From: an uncultured Bacteroidota bacterium
Lineage (GTDB): Bacteria; Bacteroidota; Bacteroidia; Chitinophagales; Chitinophagaceae
Assembly (NCBI GenBank): GCA_903825065.1
Contig: CAIJZG010000261.1
Location: 1-6,859 of the forward strand
Reading direction: 5' to 3'
Length of the DNA stretch: 6,859 nt
In this document: positions 1 to 6,859 of the stretch, piece by piece
Numbering within the stretch: the first letter of the stretch is position 1
How the letters are laid out: each line of letters opens with the position of its first letter
Made by a program: the position numbers and the translations under genes
Notes under the pieces: generated by a model
What the model was told of the DNA's origin: nothing
What the model saw: the letters and a program-made list of their open reading frames with translations, nothing else
Database searches by the model: none

Positions 1-38
1 CTAACAGCGTTAGATGTATTTTTGAAACAATTAAATCG

Positions 39-83
39 CAATGCTTGACCAATAAATCCGCTAAGCACATGGATAAAGCATTG
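39..83. repeat. Inverted pair CAATGCTT (39-46) / AAGCATTG (76-83) bracketing both candidate start codons of the first gene
   Basis: Read directly: CAATGCTTG at 39-47 and AAGCATTG at 76-83, separated by 29 nt. The TTG start (45) and ATG start (69) lie inside the pair. The same arm sequence recurs at 3357-3380 and 6660-6685. Confidence 0.4.
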
Positions 84-1193
84 ATCGAGCCTAAATCCTA
101 CCAAAACCCCAAACTTAATTACAGAAATACTCCAGCAAAAAGAAGATTAACTTATAGCTATGAGCGTGGTGAATTAATACTTAGCCCAATTGACTATGAG
201 GACAATGATGGCAGGATTGTTGGGGGCATGGTAACAATAGCAAAACCTAAAACAAAAATATTTGAACACGCTTATTCAGATTTATACATGCCCTTAATAG
301 ATAGGCGTGTGATTGAGCAAAGGTTGATTGCTCCAAACGATATAAATTTATTTAAACCATCTAGTGATGCAACTTTCAATCGTTATTACAAGTTTGATGG
401 GGATCTAAGCCACTTGATAAGATTGGACAGCAAGTTAAACAATGGTGATTTCATATTTTTAAATTTTTATGGATTTGGTGAAGATGACCCCAGCAAATTA
501 CTGCCCCAAGTAATTTACGATCAAGAACATGAATTAAAAATAACAAAGATATTCTTGCCTGTAAACGAAGTTGTAAAAATAGCAGATTTACTTGCCAAAA
601 AATGGATTAACGATATTGGTGAAAATATTAATAGGACACAGCATAGGTTTTGGGAATTGATGTTCAGGAGAGATGGTATTCAGATAGCTTTTGATGAACA
701 TATAGGCGATTTTGAACGCGATGATTTGGTTTTATTTGATATGCCACTGAGCGTAGATCCTGATTTTAGTGGGCTTTTTTTTACACATGAGTTAGCTCCA
801 TTATTAATAACTTTAGCTGAGCTTGATATTAATAGTGAAATTGAAGTTCAATTAAATGATGCTGGTATGGTGTTTAAATATGCAACTGATGCGGCTGACT
901 ACACAGTTGCAATACCAAAATGGGATGGATTGAATGACAACAGACATGTGGAGTTTTTAAATCTATATACGCCTGAGCGATGCGGAGTGAGAGTTGATGA
1001 ATTTGAATTTGATGAATATGATTTAGGAGACGAATTTTACAAAGGACTTGAGTTGCTGGGATTAAAAGATAAATCAGAAGCTGAAGCAATCTATAAAAAG
1101 CAAATAATTAATGAGCAAAGTGAGCTAGCTGATGGATTCCCAGAGTTGAGTGGCAATATTAATTGGATTACGGACGATACATCGGATGAGTAG
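45..1193 (+). CDS. Hypothetical protein, 382 aa (374 aa if the ATG at 69 is used); upstream partner of the DpdA-like gene
   Basis: Long uninterrupted ORF. TTG at 45 or in-frame ATG at 69, with no convincing Shine-Dalgarno for either. The TAG stop at 1191-1193 lies 2 nt before the ATG of the next gene. No P-loop, ParB box or nuclease motif that I trust. Acidic/aromatic C-terminal third (DEFEFDEYDLGDEFY, terminal DDTSDE). Confidence 0.75.
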   Translation: MTNKSAKHMDKALIEPKSYQNPKLNYRNTPAKRRLTYSYERGELILSPIDYEDNDGRIVGGMVTIAKPKTKIFEHAYSDLYMPLIDRRVIEQRLIAPNDINLFKPSSDATFNRYYKFDGDLSHLIRLDSKLNNGDFIFLNFYGFGEDDPSKLLPQVIYDQEHELKITKIFLPVNEVVKIADLLAKKWINDIGENINRTQHRFWELMFRRDGIQIAFDEHIGDFERDDLVLFDMPLSVDPDFSGLFFTHELAPLLITLAELDINSEIEVQLNDAGMVFKYATDAADYTVAIPKWDGLNDNRHVEFLNLYTPERCGVRVDEFEFDEYDLGDEFYKGLELLGLKDKSEAEAIYKKQIINEQSELADGFPELSGNINWITDDTSDE

Positions 1194-1195
1194 CA

Positions 1196-2509
1196 ATGCC
1201 TCAGTCATTTAATACAAAAGAATACGCAGTTTATTTGCCTGCAATTAACTCAGGTTACGCCAACTTTTTAACTAAGAAAATTCCAGCTGACAGATCATTT
1301 CCCAATGGTTTAGACATAAAAGATTTTTGCGTATGGAACAAAAAGAGTAAGTTGTTTTATCACCCTTTCCTATTGCACTCAATTGGTAACTTTAGTGCAC
1401 TATCAACTATTAATAACTCTGTAACTCAAGCCGGCAGAAATGACTTCACATTTGTAGGCGACAGTGGTGGCTACCAGATTGGCAGTGGTGCTCTAGCAGG
1501 TTTTAAAGGATTGCACAAAGGTATGAGTGCACAAGATGCCATGACAGTTTGGGCTGGTGCGTATGATGTTAAAAAATGGATAGTAAGTTGGTTGGATGCT
1601 TATGCCGATTACGCAATGACATTGGATATGCCGTTATGGGCGACTGACCCCAAACAGGGTAAAGATTCCCCATTTAATAAATGCACTGTCTCAGAACTCC
1701 TAGCTATGACAGTGGACAACCTTAAATTTATTGATGTACACGGTAGAAAAAGAACAAAATGGTTGAATGTTGTACAAGGACTAGATGAACAGAGCACAAA
1801 AGATTGGTGGGATGGCGTAAAGTTCTTTAAATGCTCAGGTTATGCACTAGCTGGTGGCGCAGGCGCAAAAGGTGGATTAGCTCAAGTAATACGCACAACA
1901 CGCATGATGCATGACGAGGGACATTTAAGGTCCGGTCAAGATTGGCTTCATGCGCTGGGCGTGTCCACTCCCGTATGGGCAATTATGCTTACCAAAATTC
2001 AAAATTGCCTGCGTAAAGATAATCCAAATTTAACTATTAGCTATGACAGCTCAAGTCCATTTCAAACTGCTGGCAAGTTTGAACAGCCCAATTACACAGT
2101 GCCCTACACAAATAAAATAAGTAGCTGGAATATTAAAACTGCCAAATCCAATACCATCCAACGTTTTAGTTTTGTAGGTAGCACTGACCCCTTCCCATAC
2201 AACTCTCCTCTAGGCCAATTAATGAGTTTGGGGCATATAAACGTTAGGGAAGAGTTGTACAGCAAGAAGCAATTTGACACTATCAGCAACATGCTTCTGA
2301 CCAATCACAATATTTGGGTGTACTTGGATGCTTTTGAAAGAGCAAATGACGAGACGTTTAAAAACAAACAAATGAGCAACGTACCACAGAGGTACATTGA
2401 TGCTATTACAGTTATTGATGATGTGTTTAACAGTTCAAATTGGCACAGCATCCTAGTACAAAACCAAGCATTACTTGATTCCGTAGCCGCTTCACAATAC
2501 AAAACATAG
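1196..2509 (+). CDS. TGT-superfamily base-exchange enzyme (queuine/archaeosine tRNA-ribosyltransferase fold), divergent DpdA-like, 437 aa
   Basis: ATG at 1196 preceded by GGATGAG. TGT motifs occur in canonical order: FVGDSGGYQ (aa 86-94, nt 1460-1477 for DSGGYQ; E. coli Tgt has LTDSGGFQ), YAMTLDMP (aa 139-146; VMIFDEC), LNVVQG (aa 190-195; FGIIQG), GYALAGG (aa 215-221; GYAVGG), HALGVSTP (aa 252-259; YLMGVGKP), SYDSSSP (aa 282-288, Asp284 at nt 2045-2047; MFDCVMP), LLTNHNIWVY (aa 367-376; LNTIHNLRYY). There is no CxCxxC...H zinc motif and no Cys after residue 271. Confidence 0.85.
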   Translation: MPQSFNTKEYAVYLPAINSGYANFLTKKIPADRSFPNGLDIKDFCVWNKKSKLFYHPFLLHSIGNFSALSTINNSVTQAGRNDFTFVGDSGGYQIGSGALAGFKGLHKGMSAQDAMTVWAGAYDVKKWIVSWLDAYADYAMTLDMPLWATDPKQGKDSPFNKCTVSELLAMTVDNLKFIDVHGRKRTKWLNVVQGLDEQSTKDWWDGVKFFKCSGYALAGGAGAKGGLAQVIRTTRMMHDEGHLRSGQDWLHALGVSTPVWAIMLTKIQNCLRKDNPNLTISYDSSSPFQTAGKFEQPNYTVPYTNKISSWNIKTAKSNTIQRFSFVGSTDPFPYNSPLGQLMSLGHINVREELYSKKQFDTISNMLLTNHNIWVYLDAFERANDETFKNKQMSNVPQRYIDAITVIDDVFNSSNWHSILVQNQALLDSVAASQYKT

Positions 2510-2516
2510 GGCAAAT

Positions 2517-2534
2517 ATCTCACAATTGTGAGAT
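2517..2534. repeat. Perfect 18-bp palindrome ATCTCACAATTGTGAGAT between convergent stop codons; possible weak bidirectional terminator or protein-binding site
   Basis: Read directly. The left stop TAG ends at 2509 and the right stop (TTA on +) begins at 2535, so the palindrome nearly fills the 25-nt gap. As RNA it gives a 7-bp stem with a 4-nt loop. The flanks are only weakly T-rich (TTATAT on +, ATTTG on -). Confidence 0.45.
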
Positions 2535-3110
2535 TTATATAAGCTCTACAGCCGCCCTTTTCTGGTCATCATTTGCATCGATGTAAACCATGGTTGTTTG
2601 TATGGACCTATGCCCAGCTAAGCTAGCCAGCACCCTTATTCCAACCCCTTTTGATGCCAAAGTTGTGATGAATGATCTCCTTGGGCTGTGGGATGTAGCG
2701 CCATCTATACATGCACCCTTAAAAAGATAATAGTAATACTGACAAAGCGTGTTGGGCGTAAACCCATCACTGGACTTCTTCTGAGAGTAAATCAGTTTTT
2801 TGCTTAAATCCGCAGATTTAAATTGTTTGATGTAACTATGTAGCTCTTTAAAAAGCTGATTGTTTATAAAAATACTGCGACCTTCACCACCCTTTGTTTG
2901 GTCTGGGCGCAAGTAAATTTCGCGCTTAATATTACCCTGCTCATCAAGCATATCGCAAAAACGCAAGCTCGCTGCCTCACTAACGCGAATTCCTGTATTG
3001 AACATTAAAATCACAAGCAATCTATTTCTAGCCGCATGTCGTTTTGTGCTGATGTAATTCAGCGTTCTTTTTAATTCTTGTGGGGTCAGTGTTTTGGCTC
3101 GTTTTGTCAT
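2535..3110 (-). CDS. Small tyrosine recombinase, catalytic domain only (191 aa), FimB/FimE-like in size and layout
   Basis: The track ORF starts at TTG 3116. The ATG at 3110 has GAGG (3117-3120) 6 nt upstream, so 3110 is preferred. The catalytic set is present: Arg in NTGIRVSEA, Lys in TKGGEGRSIFI, HxxR in SHSPRRSF, and GHRSIQTTMVY with His and the Tyr nucleophile. The N-terminal LTPQELKRTL...HAARNRLLVILMFNTGIRVSE resembles the FimB pattern as I recall it. No N-terminal arm-binding or SAM-like domain. Confidence 0.85.
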   Translation of the reverse strand: MTKRAKTLTPQELKRTLNYISTKRHAARNRLLVILMFNTGIRVSEAASLRFCDMLDEQGNIKREIYLRPDQTKGGEGRSIFINNQLFKELHSYIKQFKSADLSKKLIYSQKKSSDGFTPNTLCQYYYYLFKGACIDGATSHSPRRSFITTLASKGVGIRVLASLAGHRSIQTTMVYIDANDDQKRAAVELI

Positions 3111-3116
3111 TTTCAA

Positions 3117-3356
3117 CCTCTAAATATAATGTTTTAGTAGCTTCAAGCCTATATCCTTTTATTTAAAAGTCGAGTGCCTTGTTGCTAAAAATATTTAGTT
3201 GAAAATAATCAATGATCACAACAACTTAGCACCTTCTGTAGGAAAATGTAATGATCTAGTTGTTTCTAAACATTTTCAATTCAAGTGTTTCTTTGTAGTT
3301 ACTTGTTTGATTTTTCTTGTCTTTATGGTCTGTCGTTTTAAGTCAAAGCCATATAA
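3117..3356 (-). promoter_or_regulatory. AT-rich noncoding leader and promoter region of the small recombinase; possible cis site (oriT, ori or recombination site)
   Basis: No ORF longer than about 10 codons on either strand. SD GAGG at 3117-3120. Imperfect direct repeat GAAAAT-n-AATGATC at 3201-3217 and 3242-3256. Several TGTTT(C/G) words at 3260-3330. I could not place a convincing -35/-10 pair. Confidence 0.35.
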
Positions 3357-3380
3357 CTAAGCATTGCTTCCAATGCTTAG
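3357..3380 (-). terminator. Hairpin CTAAGCATTG-CTTC-CAATGCTTAG, 23 nt downstream of the 179-aa gene; candidate terminator or recombinase-type core site
   Basis: Perfect 10-bp stem with a 4-nt loop, read directly. On the - strand it is followed by TTATATGGCTTT, a modest U-tract. The arms share AAGCATT/AATGCTT with the sites at 39-83 and 6660-6685. Confidence 0.45.
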
Positions 3381-3402
3381 CCAACAACTACCCAAAGCAA
3401 CT

Positions 3403-3942
3403 TCAGTCAGCTTTGAGTGCGAGATAAGGTATTTGTGTATTTTCAAAATCCCAACAGCCTGTGTTCCCAAACTGAGCCTCTTTAGTGCCGTAATTTAATA
3501 AGTGTGATTGAGTGTTAGCTAACGGTTCTGTAATGTAAATATCGTTTTTTTGCTTTGCTTTGTCTACCCAGCAGTAAGTCCATAGTGTTTTTATATCTTC
3601 TGTTGTAAGTGCTTTGGGTAAGTTGCCTAGGTAAATGTTGTAGTGAATTGACTTTTTTGGATTTGATACTTCTCTAGTGCCTTCTATTGTGGGTATTAGT
3701 AATGGCGAATACAACATTGGCTTACGTATTGCGCCATTTCCATATAGCTCTTTGTTAAAACAGTTTCTTGCATGCCTGAAATCTTTACGCAAATTAAATG
3801 TCATTCTTTCAATGTCGTTTGCCTGTTTGTGATACGCAAAGTAATGGCTTTGCGCAACTACATAGTGCGTTATGTGCTTTTCTTGTTGATTTAAAAATTC
3901 CCTAATTGTTTCCATATTTTTTTGCATGTATTTATTTATCAA
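3403..3942 (-). CDS. Hypothetical protein, 179 aa, with HUH-endonuclease (Rep/YagK-YfjJ-like) motif arrangement
   Basis: Clean ORF. The track start is TTG 3942. Alternative ATGs begin at 3927 and 3915, and none has a clear SD. Motif layout: IPTIEGT...SIHYNIYLG (aa 83-106, an HUH-like H-Y-N) and LLNYGTKEA (aa 148-156, a Y-x-x-K like Rep motif 3). This is a pattern match only. Confidence 0.7.
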   Translation of the reverse strand: MINKYMQKNMETIREFLNQQEKHITHYVVAQSHYFAYHKQANDIERMTFNLRKDFRHARNCFNKELYGNGAIRKPMLYSPLLIPTIEGTREVSNPKKSIHYNIYLGNLPKALTTEDIKTLWTYCWVDKAKQKNDIYITEPLANTQSHLLNYGTKEAQFGNTGCWDFENTQIPYLALKAD

Positions 3943-4081
3943 ATCTAATAAAAAGTATTAGCAAATGTGAATTCCTTACATAAGTGTTGTGGAAATGTGG
4001 CGAAATCATTGCCTTTTCTGGTCGACTCCTTAAATGACCGATGCCAGACTGAAGACTCGATAAACAACTTAGGAGTTTTAA
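3943..4081. promoter_or_regulatory. Divergent intergenic control region between the 179-aa and 147-aa genes
   Basis: 139 bp between divergently oriented starts. Strong SD AGGAG at 4071-4075, 6 nt before ATG 4082. AT-rich inverted repeat CTAATA-aaaag-TATTAG at 3945-3961. No confident -35/-10 assignment. Confidence 0.4.
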
Positions 4082-4525
4082 ATGTCAGTATTAACAACCC
4101 TCAAGCTAGTTACTAGCAAGCGTCCCGCAGTATTGAGTCCCATCGTGCAACGTAGAAACAAGTTGGCAGCCAAAGTACATGAGCAATTGGAACTATGCCA
4201 AGCTAAAAAAGCTGGTCAGCAATACGCACCTACAAAGATGCGCACCTTTGTAAACGCTACTACTGGCGAGCAAGTGACCAAGGAAGTTGCAAAACGAGTT
4301 CGTGAGTGGTTTTACGTTGCTGATAGCGGCAAGATTAACTTGACCATCCGCTACGGCTCAAAAACACTTGCACTTAACAAGAAAGGTGCAAACGCTATTG
4401 AGCTTTCTACAGGTGATGAGCTTATAGCTACATTGACCAGCTTGAAAACAGCAATTTTGGCTGGCGATTTTGACGAGGCAATTAACGATGCTAGTAATGC
4501 TACTCGTACAGCATTTGGAAAATAA
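4082..4525 (+). CDS. Conserved island-associated hypothetical protein, 147 aa
   Basis: Excellent SD and spacing. The sequence (MSVLTTLKLVTSKRP...VQRRNKL...YAPTK...INLTIRYGSK...) resembles a family of uncharacterised proteins that I recall seeing next to integrases in proteobacterial islands. I cannot name the family with certainty. Confidence 0.8.
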   Translation: MSVLTTLKLVTSKRPAVLSPIVQRRNKLAAKVHEQLELCQAKKAGQQYAPTKMRTFVNATTGEQVTKEVAKRVREWFYVADSGKINLTIRYGSKTLALNKKGANAIELSTGDELIATLTSLKTAILAGDFDEAINDASNATRTAFGK

Positions 4526-4531
4526 CAAGCT

Positions 4532-4561
4532 GGGGTTGGCGTAACTGCCGACCTCACTTTT
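4532..4561 (+). terminator. Candidate intrinsic terminator or attenuator after the 147-aa gene
   Basis: GGGGTTGGC (4532-4540) pairs with GCCGACCTC (4547-4555). This gives 9 bp including two G-U pairs, with the 6-nt loop GTAACT, followed by ACTTTT. Confidence 0.45.
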
Positions 4562-4572
4562 AAACTTAAAAT

Positions 4573-4719
4573 ATGAATACCTACCAAGCAAACGTACGAA
4601 TTAACAACACCGTTGTACAAACACGTGTCCAAGCCGCAAGTGAGTACCAAGCAAAGCTATTGCTGGCTTCACAATACGGCGCCAGCAACATCATCGGGTT
4701 TGTGCAGTTAGTTCATTAA
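4573..4719 (+). CDS. Small ORF, 48 aa (MNTYQANVRINNTVVQTRVQAASEYQAKLLLASQYGASNIIGFVQLVH), not in the supplied ORF track
   Basis: Hand-translated from ATG 4573 to TAA 4717-4719. It fills the gap between two same-strand genes. No SD is visible, and its start lies just after a terminator-like hairpin. Confidence 0.3.
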   Translation: MNTYQANVRINNTVVQTRVQAASEYQAKLLLASQYGASNIIGFVQLVH

Positions 4720-4759
4720 CAACCCTCCCCCTTATAAATACATTAAAGGGGTATACACC

Positions 4760-5059
4760 ATGTTAATGAGCGAAATCACAAGCAAAAAGGATATAGCTAT
4801 GCTGTTGGAAGTAACAATCTATCCAAGTATTCTGGAAACCAGACGTCGTACCACGTGGCGTAAATTGATTAAGGGTAGGCCAGTACCCCTGCTACCCAGC
4901 ACCCCAAAATTAAAAGTGCAACACAACACCCAGCAAAATTTAGTGCACCAGCAAGCTCAGGTCATCGACCAGTTACAGCAAGCCCTAGCACCTAAGTTGG
5001 CGCCCAACACCATACGCCCAGTAAGATCAACGCATACCCAAATGGCATCTGCAACCTGA
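4760..5059 (+). CDS. Hypothetical small protein, 99 aa; excisionase or regulator suspected only from its position next to the integrase
   Basis: SD AAGGGG at 4746-4751, 8 nt before the ATG. The N-terminal 45 aa are basic and plausibly helical. The C-terminal half is Q/P-rich and low in complexity. No AlpA or Xis motif recognised. Confidence 0.55.
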   Translation: MLMSEITSKKDIAMLLEVTIYPSILETRRRTTWRKLIKGRPVPLLPSTPKLKVQHNTQQNLVHQQAQVIDQLQQALAPKLAPNTIRPVRSTHTQMASAT

Positions 5060-5086
5060 AATTTTGAGTCGTCAAGAAAATTACGT

Positions 5087-5132
5087 AGGGGTACTTAAAC
5101 TTTTCAGGGTGTGTTTTACCCTCTGTACCCCT
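5087..5132 (+). terminator. Nested stem-loop downstream of the 99-aa gene (candidate terminator or structured RNA)
   Basis: The outer stem pairs AGGGGTAC (5087-5094) with GTACCCCT (5125-5132). The inner hairpin is AGGGT (5106-5110), loop GTGTTTT, ACCCT (5118-5122). It is followed by TGCTTTACTG, with no strong U-tract. Confidence 0.35.
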
Positions 5133-5412
5133 TGCTTTACTGTAATTGTAAAAAACAGCTCGAGCATACTCCGAGACGCCTGTATTCATAAAAATCAGTT
5201 TGATTAAAAAAACAATTCATTTTGAATAAACGGGCTATGTTTTTATACGATGCATTCGCTGTTTCAAAGTACTCCTGAAACGGACGAGATCAAGCAATAA
5301 GCTATTTCTTTTTCACAATTGATATCTGGGTAGCTGGCTTAGAAATTCCTAATTTTCAAAGCGTTGATTTGGTGGAAGGTGACATGGTAATTATTTTTCA
5401 GTCAGAACAACC

Positions 5413-5429
5413 CGTTACTTGAAGTAACG
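5413..5429 (-). terminator. Short palindrome CGTTACTTGAAGTAACG 8 nt downstream of the integrase stop; weak terminator candidate
   Basis: Stem CGTTAC/GTAACG with a 5-nt loop. On the - strand it is followed by GGTTGTTCTG, only moderately T-rich. Confidence 0.3.
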
Positions 5430-5436
5430 CCTGGTA

Positions 5437-6666
5437 CTACGCCAACTTGTCCGCTGCCATAGTTGCAGTCATTTTGCTGTAATGGCGTTCAATCATGCCT
5501 ACGCTTGTACCCATTTGCTTGGCTAGGGTATGAATATCAATGCCCCTTGCCAGTGACTGAGTGGCATAGGTATGGCGAAGGCTGTATAAAGTTCTGGTCT
5601 GCCCAGCACCATCTTCCAGTAACCCACTCTTTTGCATCAAATTTCGGAAGATATTGGGCATATGGCTTAGGGTGTCACCATTTGGGCGTTTAAAAACCGG
5701 CTTGTCTAGCTTGGCATCAATGATTTCAGTCAAGTTCTTATAGGGTAACCCTTGCCAGACCAGTAGTCGTTCCAATACTTCCACTACCTCGTGTCTAGCA
5801 ATCAAATATCTTGGCCCTGTCTTGCCACTGACCCAAATACGAACATATCGTTTGCCATCCATCCAATGCCATTGAATATGTCGCCATCTTAGGGGTAGGG
5901 CTTCAGTGCCATGTCTAATTCCTGTAGCCAATAAGAACTCCACATATGCAATGCAAAGCCGTCTCATCTCAGCAGTATGTTCTGTATAGCTACTGGTCAA
6001 CCAAGTTGGAAAATATGCTCTCAGTTGCTCAATTTCTTCATTTGTAAAGGCTGGGCGGGGTGTGCTTTTAGTTCCCTTAGAGTTAAGAATGGGAATCGCG
6101 CGATTTAGCCCAACAGCACCTGATTCTCTTCCGTAGTTAATCACTCGTATATAAGCACTGGCGTGATTACGTTTGGTACTGGCCATTGGCATTTTTCCCA
6201 TCTCCGCTTCACGCCAAGATTCAAAGTCAGCCAAGTCATCTACTGTTATTGTCTCAATTTCCTTTGCCCCAAAGAAAGGAATTAAGTATTTGTTGATGGC
6301 AAAGGTATAGTCCCTGTATGTACGCTTACCTGTCTTGTTTTCCATCATCCTGGCCATATTTCCAATTTCAGCCAATGCGACTTGTCTAAATGTCTTCCTT
6401 AATATGGCTAATCCAGCATCAGTCTTGGCTCTGGTGGCTTCGTAGATGGCTATTGATTGCACCTTTGCTGAGGCCAAATCATCAGTGCCGGTACTGGCAG
6501 TATGCCAGTTGCCATTAGCCAACTTAAATCTACATTGCCACTGGTGACTTCGCTTTCGCTTAAAAAGCGTCAACGCACCATTGAGCAATGTATGTGTTTT
6601 GGAGTTGTCCGTTGCGGTTGGACTTGATTGAGCAAAGATTTGTTGAAGTGATGACATTGCAAGCAT
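5437..6666 (-). CDS. int: Tyrosine-type site-specific integrase, 409 aa
   Basis: Full-length ORF with an N-terminal RKRSHQWQCRFKLANGNWHTASTG island-integrase-type arm region. The catalytic domain has Arg in LATGIRHGTEA, LYSLRHTYATQ (Arg-II), and MGTSVGMIERHYSK (Tyr nucleophile). A second in-frame ATG begins at 6657. No clear SD. Confidence 0.9.
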   Translation of the reverse strand: MLAMSSLQQIFAQSSPTATDNSKTHTLLNGALTLFKRKRSHQWQCRFKLANGNWHTASTGTDDLASAKVQSIAIYEATRAKTDAGLAILRKTFRQVALAEIGNMARMMENKTGKRTYRDYTFAINKYLIPFFGAKEIETITVDDLADFESWREAEMGKMPMASTKRNHASAYIRVINYGRESGAVGLNRAIPILNSKGTKSTPRPAFTNEEIEQLRAYFPTWLTSSYTEHTAEMRRLCIAYVEFLLATGIRHGTEALPLRWRHIQWHWMDGKRYVRIWVSGKTGPRYLIARHEVVEVLERLLVWQGLPYKNLTEIIDAKLDKPVFKRPNGDTLSHMPNIFRNLMQKSGLLEDGAGQTRTLYSLRHTYATQSLARGIDIHTLAKQMGTSVGMIERHYSKMTATMAADKLA

Positions 6667-6685
6667 TTGTGTAAAACAATGCTTG
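6660..6685. repeat. Inverted repeat CAAGCATT-n10-AATGCTTG overlapping the integrase start codon
   Basis: Read directly: CAAGCATT at 6660-6667, spacer TGTGTAAAAC, AATGCTTG at 6678-6685. The integrase ATG (CAT on +) is at 6664-6666, inside the left arm. Confidence 0.45.
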
Positions 6686-6859
6686 TAATTTTGTTTTCAT
6701 CGCAGAAATAAAGCGACCAAAAACAGTTATTTTATCATTTTGATGACTGTAGATGCTATTAGATTTGCATCATTTTCCATGAACTGCCACTAAAACTGTT
6801 GCAGATAAAGCACGGTATTTTGTAGTGCTTAAAGTAATGTTTTTTAACGGTCTATACAC

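Follow-up and report, generated by a model that had tools for sequence, protein, structure and literature searches.

Which kind of partner does a guanine transglycosylase of the DpdA type have on a mobile island without DpdB? The question is raised by a 6,859-nucleotide stretch of DNA from an uncultured Bacteroidota bacterium of the Chitinophagaceae (GenBank assembly GCA_903825065.1, contig CAIJZG010000261.1, positions 1 to 6,859 of the forward strand; hereafter the window), in which a gene called ORF1 lies directly before ORF2, a gene for an enzyme with the predicted fold of a tRNA-guanine transglycosylase (TGT). Two forms of DNA 7-deazaguanine system are known, one that combines DpdA with the ATPase DpdB and one in which a phage DpdA stands alone. 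The bacterial Dpd system pairs the DpdA transglycosylase with DpdB, a ParB-like ATPase (PMC10164549). An earlier note, made by eye from the letters of the window, had read ORF1 as a DnaN-like sliding clamp that might replace DpdB as the accessory subunit of a DNA transglycosylase.

Here we propose that ORF1 serves the DpdA-like transglycosylase ORF2 as a clamp-fold platform on DNA, in a gene pair borne on integrase-bearing islands, a reading that we hold with about even confidence. It draws on a modelled two-domain clamp module in ORF1, on the conserved pairing of the two genes, and on phages in which a probable sliding clamp gene precedes a relative of ORF2.

Results

ORF1 is the 3' part of a longer gene

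The window is a whole contig (C261), one of 345 in an 81%-complete assembly, and its left edge cuts ORF1. The reading frame is open back to base 3 in the open reading frame listing, and the nearest database protein (P0002, 658 residues, 99%-identical) differs at one position across the 396 residues encoded in the window. The window start corresponds to P0002 residue 263, with 262 N-terminal codons beyond the contig end, and all 19 close homologues have 644-664 residues. On this sequence evidence, the TTG at position 45 is an internal codon and not the start of ORF1, because the frame remains open to base 3 and the homologues are 644-664 residues long. A feature placed "over the ORF1 start" at 39-83 falls within coding sequence. 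The earlier argument that a protein of 382 residues approaches the 366 of DnaN is void, because that length is an artefact of contig truncation.

Residues are numbered below as in the 658-residue protein, where window base = 3 + 3 x (residue - 263); the numbering of the 45-1193 translation used previously is the full-length residue minus 276. In that translation, the strings that had attracted attention do occur as reported, namely ELKITK...KKW at aa 163-187, GIQIAFDE from aa 211, AIPKW at aa 289-293, DEFEFDEYDLGDEFY at aa 318-332 and DDTSDE at aa 377-382.

A two-domain clamp module is predicted in ORF1

The AlphaFold2 model of full-length P0002, built on an alignment of 79 diverse homologues, had a pLDDT of 84 and a pTM of 0.75, with the clamp region mostly above 85. 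In the model, residues 1-143 form a helical N-terminal domain and residues ~144-184 a disordered acidic linker; a small alpha/beta domain (185-258) comes next, then a beta-rich region (259-590) with four helices (263-273, 360-371, 449-470 and 523-535), and finally the acidic tail. The best 50 Foldseek matches in the PDB were all PCNA, 9-1-1 or beta clamps (probability 1.00, E ~2e-6). Re-scoring with VIA-align gave 518 chains at Z>=8, among which Rad9, PCNA and DnaN reached Z 12-13; the alignment with human Rad9 covered 238/254 residues at Z 13.2 and rmsd 3.9 (model range 259-572, window 3-932). A VIA-align search of 48,161 PDB representatives without the Foldseek prefilter returned 38 matches at Z 8.2-12.7, followed by scores of Z<=6, and all 38 were clamps or clamp-fold processivity factors (9-1-1, PCNA, DnaN, the ASFV clamp, UL44, gp45, PF-8, BMRF1 and UL42). 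When Foldseek was run against BFVD, the top matches with names were viral clamps, and several more had no names. The fold-level part of the original suggestion was thereby borne out, as the strong matches in the AlphaFold2 and Foldseek/VIA-align check were exclusively sliding clamps or clamp-fold factors.

According to the model, residues 259-572 are a complete two-domain PCNA/9-1-1-type clamp module, predicted with high confidence. This type is assigned rather than the three-domain DnaN type because the number of clamp domains is two (259-430 and 431-590); the DnaN chains among the matches align over two of their three domains. Both stretches singled out by eye are structurally part of the clamp, one as the strand-helix that opens domain 2 and the other as the rest of domain 2 up to YTVAIPKW, whereas their assignment to domains II and III of a DnaN protein was not sustained. 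The N-terminal 258 residues received no fold assignment: the fold search with the N-terminal helical domain gave Z<=5.1 at best, and the ESM Atlas returned only unnamed clusters for these residues.

The sequence of ORF1 shows no clamp membership to profile methods. The part in the window, full-length P0002 and all 79 diverse family members were without a match in Pfam, NCBIfam, PADLOC or PHROGs; the Pfam families concerned include DNA_pol3_beta, PCNA_N/C and the gp45 families. The family profile found no clamp at E<=10 among all PDB sequences, phmmer likewise found none, and the similarity to DnaN that had been seen by eye thus lacks statistical support. In the modelled protein, the clamp relation holds at the level of the fold, and sequence profiles do not detect it. 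Regular-expression scans of the full-length protein found no Walker A, ParB GxxR or HNH motif, and the sole loose PD-(D/E)xK match falls in the clamp beta-strand region, so that the reported lack of these motifs extends from the window to the whole protein.

The ORF1 family comprises 270 clusters at 50% identity, based on a search of the close-family profile against 1.84 billion representatives. Four residues (Q431, W463, T557 and P567) are near-invariant across the 79 diverse homologues. The acidic/aromatic tail is real and a family trait, with a net charge of <= -5 in 49 of the 79 members; residues 594-604 and 644-658 are predicted to be disordered, F596, E597 and F598 are invariant in the close subfamily, and so are Q634, L637 and P642 in the close-subfamily alignment A1. 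The regular-expression scans found no canonical PIP box or beta-binding motif in ORF1, just a degenerate Qxx[L]xxxF. This tail segment, QSELADGF, could fold back onto the clamp pocket or bind another clamp.

ORF1 and ORF2 form a dedicated pair

A scan of 185,579 species genomes for relatives of ORF2 yielded 58 loci. In 45 of these, the gene just before the ORF2 relative, and on its strand, belongs to the ORF1 family; the other loci are on truncated contigs or have an ORF2 relative at <=30% identity. The paired loci span Alpha-, Beta- and Gammaproteobacteria, Bacteroidota and Geobacteraceae, with Polynucleobacter, Limnohabitans, Rhodobacterales and Pseudohongiella among the hosts. The ORF2 start lies between -11 and +20 nt from the ORF1 stop in 40 of 44 loci. 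In the window, the ATG of ORF2 lies 2 nt past the ORF1 stop, and a Shine-Dalgarno-like run (GGATGAG) is found within the end of ORF1. Pairwise identities within the ORF1 family track those within the ORF2 family (matrix correlation r 0.87, Mantel p 0.001), with ORF1 diverging faster (mean identity 24% vs 41% for ORF2). Strict synteny, translational coupling and co-divergence make ORF1 and ORF2 a dedicated pair, which agrees with the earlier description of ORF1 as the partner of a transglycosylase-like protein.

In four loci, a gene of 203-244 aa without a Pfam match is inserted between the two (L019:7356-7967, L022:429-1094, L027:4281-4892 and L029:7240-7974), and may encode a third subunit in that sub-lineage. 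Upstream of the most distant island relatives of ORF2, proteins of 666-708 aa are encoded (L056:3923-6049, L057:1621-3732 and L058:5983-7983); hhalign spoke against them as far kin of ORF1 (probability 0.1%), and we rejected that relation. The distant ORF2 relative of L057 is directly followed by a gene for a D12-class adenine methyltransferase.

ORF2 has a predicted TGT fold

The model of ORF2 has a pLDDT of 94. Foldseek matched it to tRNA-guanine transglycosylases at E 5e-9, and VIA-align aligned 308 residues with the TGT of T. maritima at Z 21.7. The GDSGGFQIG motif (D89, S90, G92 and Q94), D144 and the S282/D284 motif are invariant in 55 ORF2 homologues, and the order of these motifs suggests that the aspartates are equivalent to the catalytic ones of TGT, namely the Asp of the DSGG motif, a base-binding Asp and a nucleophile Asp.

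The C-terminal tails of island-type ORF2 proteins contain L[LFI][DNSAE]x[FV] in 21 of 41 cases vs 1.2 expected from shuffles, by a pattern that was defined post hoc. As a lead only, this LLDx[FV] peptide is a possible docking motif for the clamp module of ORF1. Among the tails from L002-L046, it sometimes stands at the extreme end as QQLLDNFKG, fitting Qxx[L]xxF.

Phages place a probable sliding clamp gene before relatives of ORF2

A phage gene for a protein of 243 aa, c7, lies directly upstream of a distant ORF2 relative in 21 of 24 IMG/VR contigs (L065-L088), often abutting it, and abuts an ORF2 relative in six phage-like genome loci as well (L047, L049-L052 and L055). The gene for a family-B DNA polymerase (PolB) usually precedes c7. 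The protein belongs to phrog_12062, whose function is unannotated in PHROGs; its records are annotated as "proliferating cell nuclear antigen" in phage vB_Pa-PAC2 and as "sliding clamp beta" in phage Phosso, and in the ESM Atlas it is closest to gp45-slide_C and sliding-clamp clusters. These annotations and neighbours indicate that c7 is a phage sliding clamp, probably a replicative one. The ORF1 clamp module aligned colinearly with the c7 profile over 205 columns up to both C-termini (hhalign E 2.5e-4, probability 43%), the probability having been 14% before trimming and enrichment.

The tails of phage ORF2-type proteins carry an F..LF[DE]-like motif within the last 45 residues in 17 of 20 unique cases, again by a post hoc pattern. 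The tail motifs of the ORF2 family recall the C-terminal clamp-binding peptides of T4/RB69-family polymerases as well as PIP or beta motifs, a likeness that we treat as a lead only.

In the PA5oct-like jumbo phages, polB is followed by a PCNA-like gene, an ORF of 87 aa and a gene for a 540-aa "hypothetical protein", with a glycosyltransferase gene and QueE further on. The 540-aa protein is a homologue of ORF2 (hhalign 100%, E 9e-40), encoded at L060:7075-8697 in vB_Pa-PAC2 and by the same gene in PA5oct. The DNA of PA5oct resists restriction enzymes in a pattern that points to a modified G, and the phage has QueE and QueD-like genes (PMC12191111); a previous survey had already ascribed a "deazaguanine synthesis/incorporation system" to it (PMC7824862). 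We consider the 540-aa protein a candidate incorporation enzyme for the modified G of PA5oct.

The pair belongs to an integrase-bearing island

The pair is accompanied by a conserved island backbone that consists of a small tyrosine recombinase, DUF6641, DUF6876 and an integrase (Table 1). In L002-L046, the backbone recombinase has ~200 aa with the catalytic domain only and the integrase has ~430 aa, and the four-gene backbone as a whole is conserved across classes of Proteobacteria. ORF1 and the transglycosylase gene may be a hallmark of this family of island elements rather than casual cargo. GC content is 0.35 across ORF1 (window 1-1000) vs 0.44-0.46 across the integrase (5500-6500), which is consistent with a mosaic origin of module and backbone.

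The ORF1 and DUF6641 genes were not found in 40 related genomes, a tblastn search with P0002 gave no match among 72,556 plasmids, and no close copy above 31% identity to ORF2 was found in IMG/VR. In related islands, the pair often adjoins defence-type or restriction-modification cargo, such as a C5 cytosine methylase with an adjoining 370-aa gene (L021:3825-6185) or a DUF4917/SIR2-like gene (L004:2399-3454) beside ORF1. The element in L002 lies between two porin genes or fragments (15-1190 and 7145-8335), which may mark insertion into a porin locus.

Table 1. Features of the window and their positions
Feature	Position	Strand	Remarks
ORF1, 3' part	3..1193	+	Residues 263-658 of a 658-aa protein; TAG stop at 1191-1193
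Clamp domain 1 (predicted)	3..506	+	Residues 263-430; domain begins at ~259, just off the contig; AlphaFold2 pLDDT mostly >80
Clamp domain 2 (predicted)	507..986	+	Residues 431-590; contains both stretches of the earlier note; ends in strand YTVAIPKW
Acidic/aromatic tail	987..1190	+	Residues 591-658; net charge -14; DEFEFDEYDLGDEFY at 996-1040; helix 605-639
PIP-box-like QSELADGF (lead only)	1116..1139	+	Residues 634-641; regular-expression match
ORF2, predicted TGT-fold enzyme, 437 aa	1196..2509	+	Candidate DpdA-like guanine transglycosylase
LLDSV peptide of ORF2 (lead only)	2471..2485	+	Residues 426-430; possible clamp-docking motif
Small tyrosine recombinase	2535..3116	-	Pfam Phage_integrase, E 1.4e-24; homologue in 39 of 58 loci
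DUF6641 protein	4082..4525	+	Pfam, E 2.7e-10; present in 32 loci
Island integrase, tyrosine recombinase with N-terminal SAM-like domain	5437..6666	-	Pfam; present in 33 loci

Discussion

In the mechanism that we propose, the clamp-fold module of ORF1 would be a DNA-associated platform that binds ORF2, possibly via the conserved C-terminal peptide of ORF2. ORF1 would keep ORF2 on double-stranded DNA, and ORF2 would then replace guanines by a 7-deazaguanine base along extended stretches, with ORF1 taking the role of DpdB by a different fold and without an NTPase. That the two proteins bind each other, that ORF1 forms a ring or tracks on DNA, that DNA is the substrate and what the base is are inferred steps. 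The acidic tail may dock, regulate or autoinhibit; acidic tails of single-strand-binding proteins serve as docking and regulatory elements. The island version would most likely descend from the phage layout, in which a sliding clamp gene of the phage's own lies directly before the transglycosylase gene. A more specific form of this proposal is possible but doubtful, namely that ORF1 is a loader-independent ring or open clamp on which the base-exchange enzyme moves along duplex DNA, a processivity clamp reserved for an enzyme of DNA hypermodification and evolved from phage replicative clamps that couple deazaguanine insertion to the replication fork via a C-terminal clamp-binding peptide of the transglycosylase.

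The proposed platform shares features with several known systems. Like PCNA and the 9-1-1 subunits, ORF1 would have two tandem clamp domains within ~300 residues, with four helices on two beta-sheets (Z 12-13, ~235/255 residues). Unlike them, it has no detectable sequence similarity to clamps, its module is embedded in 658 aa with ~260 extra N-terminal residues and an acidic tail, the helices that would line a ring have near-zero net charge by sequence, no cognate loader was found beside it, and its partner is a base-exchange enzyme in place of a polymerase or checkpoint machinery. The phage layout likewise places a clamp-fold gene before an ORF2-family gene, often abutting; the two clamp proteins show a weak colinear match and the ORF2 relatives share catalytic motifs. 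In contrast, c7 is a stand-alone protein of 243 aa encoded beside PolB, whereas ORF1 is 2.7 times longer and is found on non-viral islands without a polymerase neighbour. In the Dpd system too, an enzyme of the TGT superfamily comes with a non-catalytic partner of its own, on an island that is transferred horizontally. However, ORF1 lacks motifs of ParB or of an NTPase, Pfam TGT does not cover ORF2, BLAST places ORF2 outside the named DpdA subfamilies, and the island carries no dpdC-K restriction genes. Because DpdB and DpdC-K are missing, ORF1-ORF2 is not a member of the Dpd system.

Several observations weigh against the proposed role. The folds of both ORF1 and ORF2 are predictions. ORF2 has no match to Pfam TGT (PF01702) at E<=0.1, and a tblastn search with it against 50,697 phage records found only PA5oct-like phages, Phosso and one Vibrio phage, with no known phage DpdA. 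Common descent of the ORF1 clamp module and c7 is suggested by the profile alignment, which is a weak link. The adjacency of clamp and TGT-like genes in phages could partly reflect the synteny of replication modules, and phage Phosso has these genes at distant positions. As to the supply of the base, the 81%-complete genome to which the window belongs (G000) carries a canonical tgt (C148:2902-3972), two QueD/PTPS genes (C338:4034-4438 and C2:2008-2421) and a 24-bit partial match to QueC (C181:7913-8095), whereas QueF was not found in it. The island itself carries no preQ0 synthesis genes.

The electrostatics of the module also speak against a canonical clamp. Across the 79 sequences, the helices equivalent to those lining the ring have mean net charges of +0.3, +0.8, -0.1 and -0.5 (calculated from sequence alone, for this family), and each of the four has a conserved acidic residue, as an R...E or K-E pair. 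Clamp domain 2 of ORF1 has a net charge of -16. These near-zero helix charges and the negative domain 2 make a poor fit to a canonical basic DNA channel. No AAA+/RFC-like clamp-loader gene is present in the window and none was noted in the partly annotated related loci; a loader of the host may be used.

Since the helices that would line a ring have about zero net charge by sequence, domain 2 stands at -16 and no loader is encoded nearby, a non-ring mode like that of UL42/UL44 is a serious variant. ORF1 would then be a non-encircling adaptor, either a monomer or dimer like these herpesvirus factors or a scaffold like 9-1-1, which binds ORF2 together with one face of DNA or a component of the host replisome. 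We regard this as rather unlikely, yet worth keeping in view. The herpesvirus factors UL42, UL44, BMRF1 and PF-8, which share the clamp fold and act without a loader as monomers or open dimers, are among the structural matches (Z 8.2-10.8). In the ORF1 family, clamp domain 1 is positive on average (+4.0) and domain 2 negative, and the extra N-terminal domains could provide DNA binding or oligomerisation. The herpesvirus proteins differ in that they tether a DNA polymerase and bind DNA by a basic face, which in ORF1 would be hypothetical. On the other side, the top matches of the model are ring-forming 9-1-1 and PCNA subunits with more than 90% of the target covered, and the phage counterpart c7 appears to be a genuine replicative clamp.

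The second alternative concerns the substrate. TGT-family enzymes can modify proteins as well, as found for Cap10 of type IV CBASS (10.1101/2025.04.06.647259) and proposed for TIM-B (10.64898/2026.10.19.760177), which also counts against DNA as the target. ORF2 would accordingly be a deazaguanine transferase that acts on proteins, with ORF1 as its substrate or as the regulated effector of a two-gene immune module, and the DNA would be unmodified. The layout of a partner gene upstream of a TGT-like gene does resemble the effector-TIM-B pairs (10.64898/2026.10.19.760177) and Cap10 (10.1101/2025.04.06.647259), in which a TGT-related TIM barrel stands beside one variable partner in a mobile or defence context, and related islands carry defence-type neighbours (DUF4917/SIR2-like and C5 methylase). 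The known or proposed targets of those enzymes are proteins or small molecules, and effectors can be recognised in their partners, whereas ORF1 has a predicted clamp fold, and Pfam, PADLOC, PHROGs and the fold search revealed no toxin, nuclease or effector domain in it, its N-terminal 258 residues being without an assigned fold. The phage relatives of ORF2 lie in DNA-modification and replication modules, next to PolB, a replicative clamp and QueE, in phages including one with modified G in its DNA (PMC12191111). ORF2 had no match to phage P4 in the phage collection, and in a distant subfamily the gene after ORF2 is for a Dam methylase, as would suit a DNA-modification module. We consider the protein-directed alternative improbable, because these searches found no effector domain in ORF1 and DNA is the target that the phage context suggests.

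It is very unlikely that the pair serves replication or maintenance of the island, with ORF1 as a processivity or recruitment factor for a host polymerase and ORF2 in an unrelated role. The co-occurrence of the pair with the conserved backbone (small recombinase, DUF6641, DUF6876 and integrase) would fit such a role, as would the failure to find the island as a whole in any of 40 related genomes, but these islands encode no polymerase, primase or helicase, and ORF1 is translationally coupled to a TGT-like gene and not to a replication gene. The literal form of the earlier reading, a free-standing three-domain DnaN-type beta clamp of 382 aa, has next to no probability left, as it was based on by-eye motif resemblance and is refuted by full-length homologues: the gene is truncated, the protein has 658 aa and two clamp domains, and no DNA_pol3_beta match occurs in 79 members.

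The reading of ORF1 as a clamp-fold platform for ORF2 suggests a clamp-assisted insertion of modified guanines into DNA that was previously undescribed; no description of a clamp-fold partner for a TGT- or DpdA-type enzyme was found in the searchable literature. The pairing of a TGT fold with a clamp fold in two settings, a fusion-type island protein of 650 aa and a phage sliding clamp, points to clamp-tethered, and possibly replication-coupled, base exchange. If true, this would supply a candidate for the enzyme that puts the unexplained modified G into the DNA of PA5oct-like jumbo phages. In addition, bacteria have few examples of the clamp fold serving outside replication, and the predicted fold of ORF1 would add one more, in a cryptic family that Pfam does not cover.

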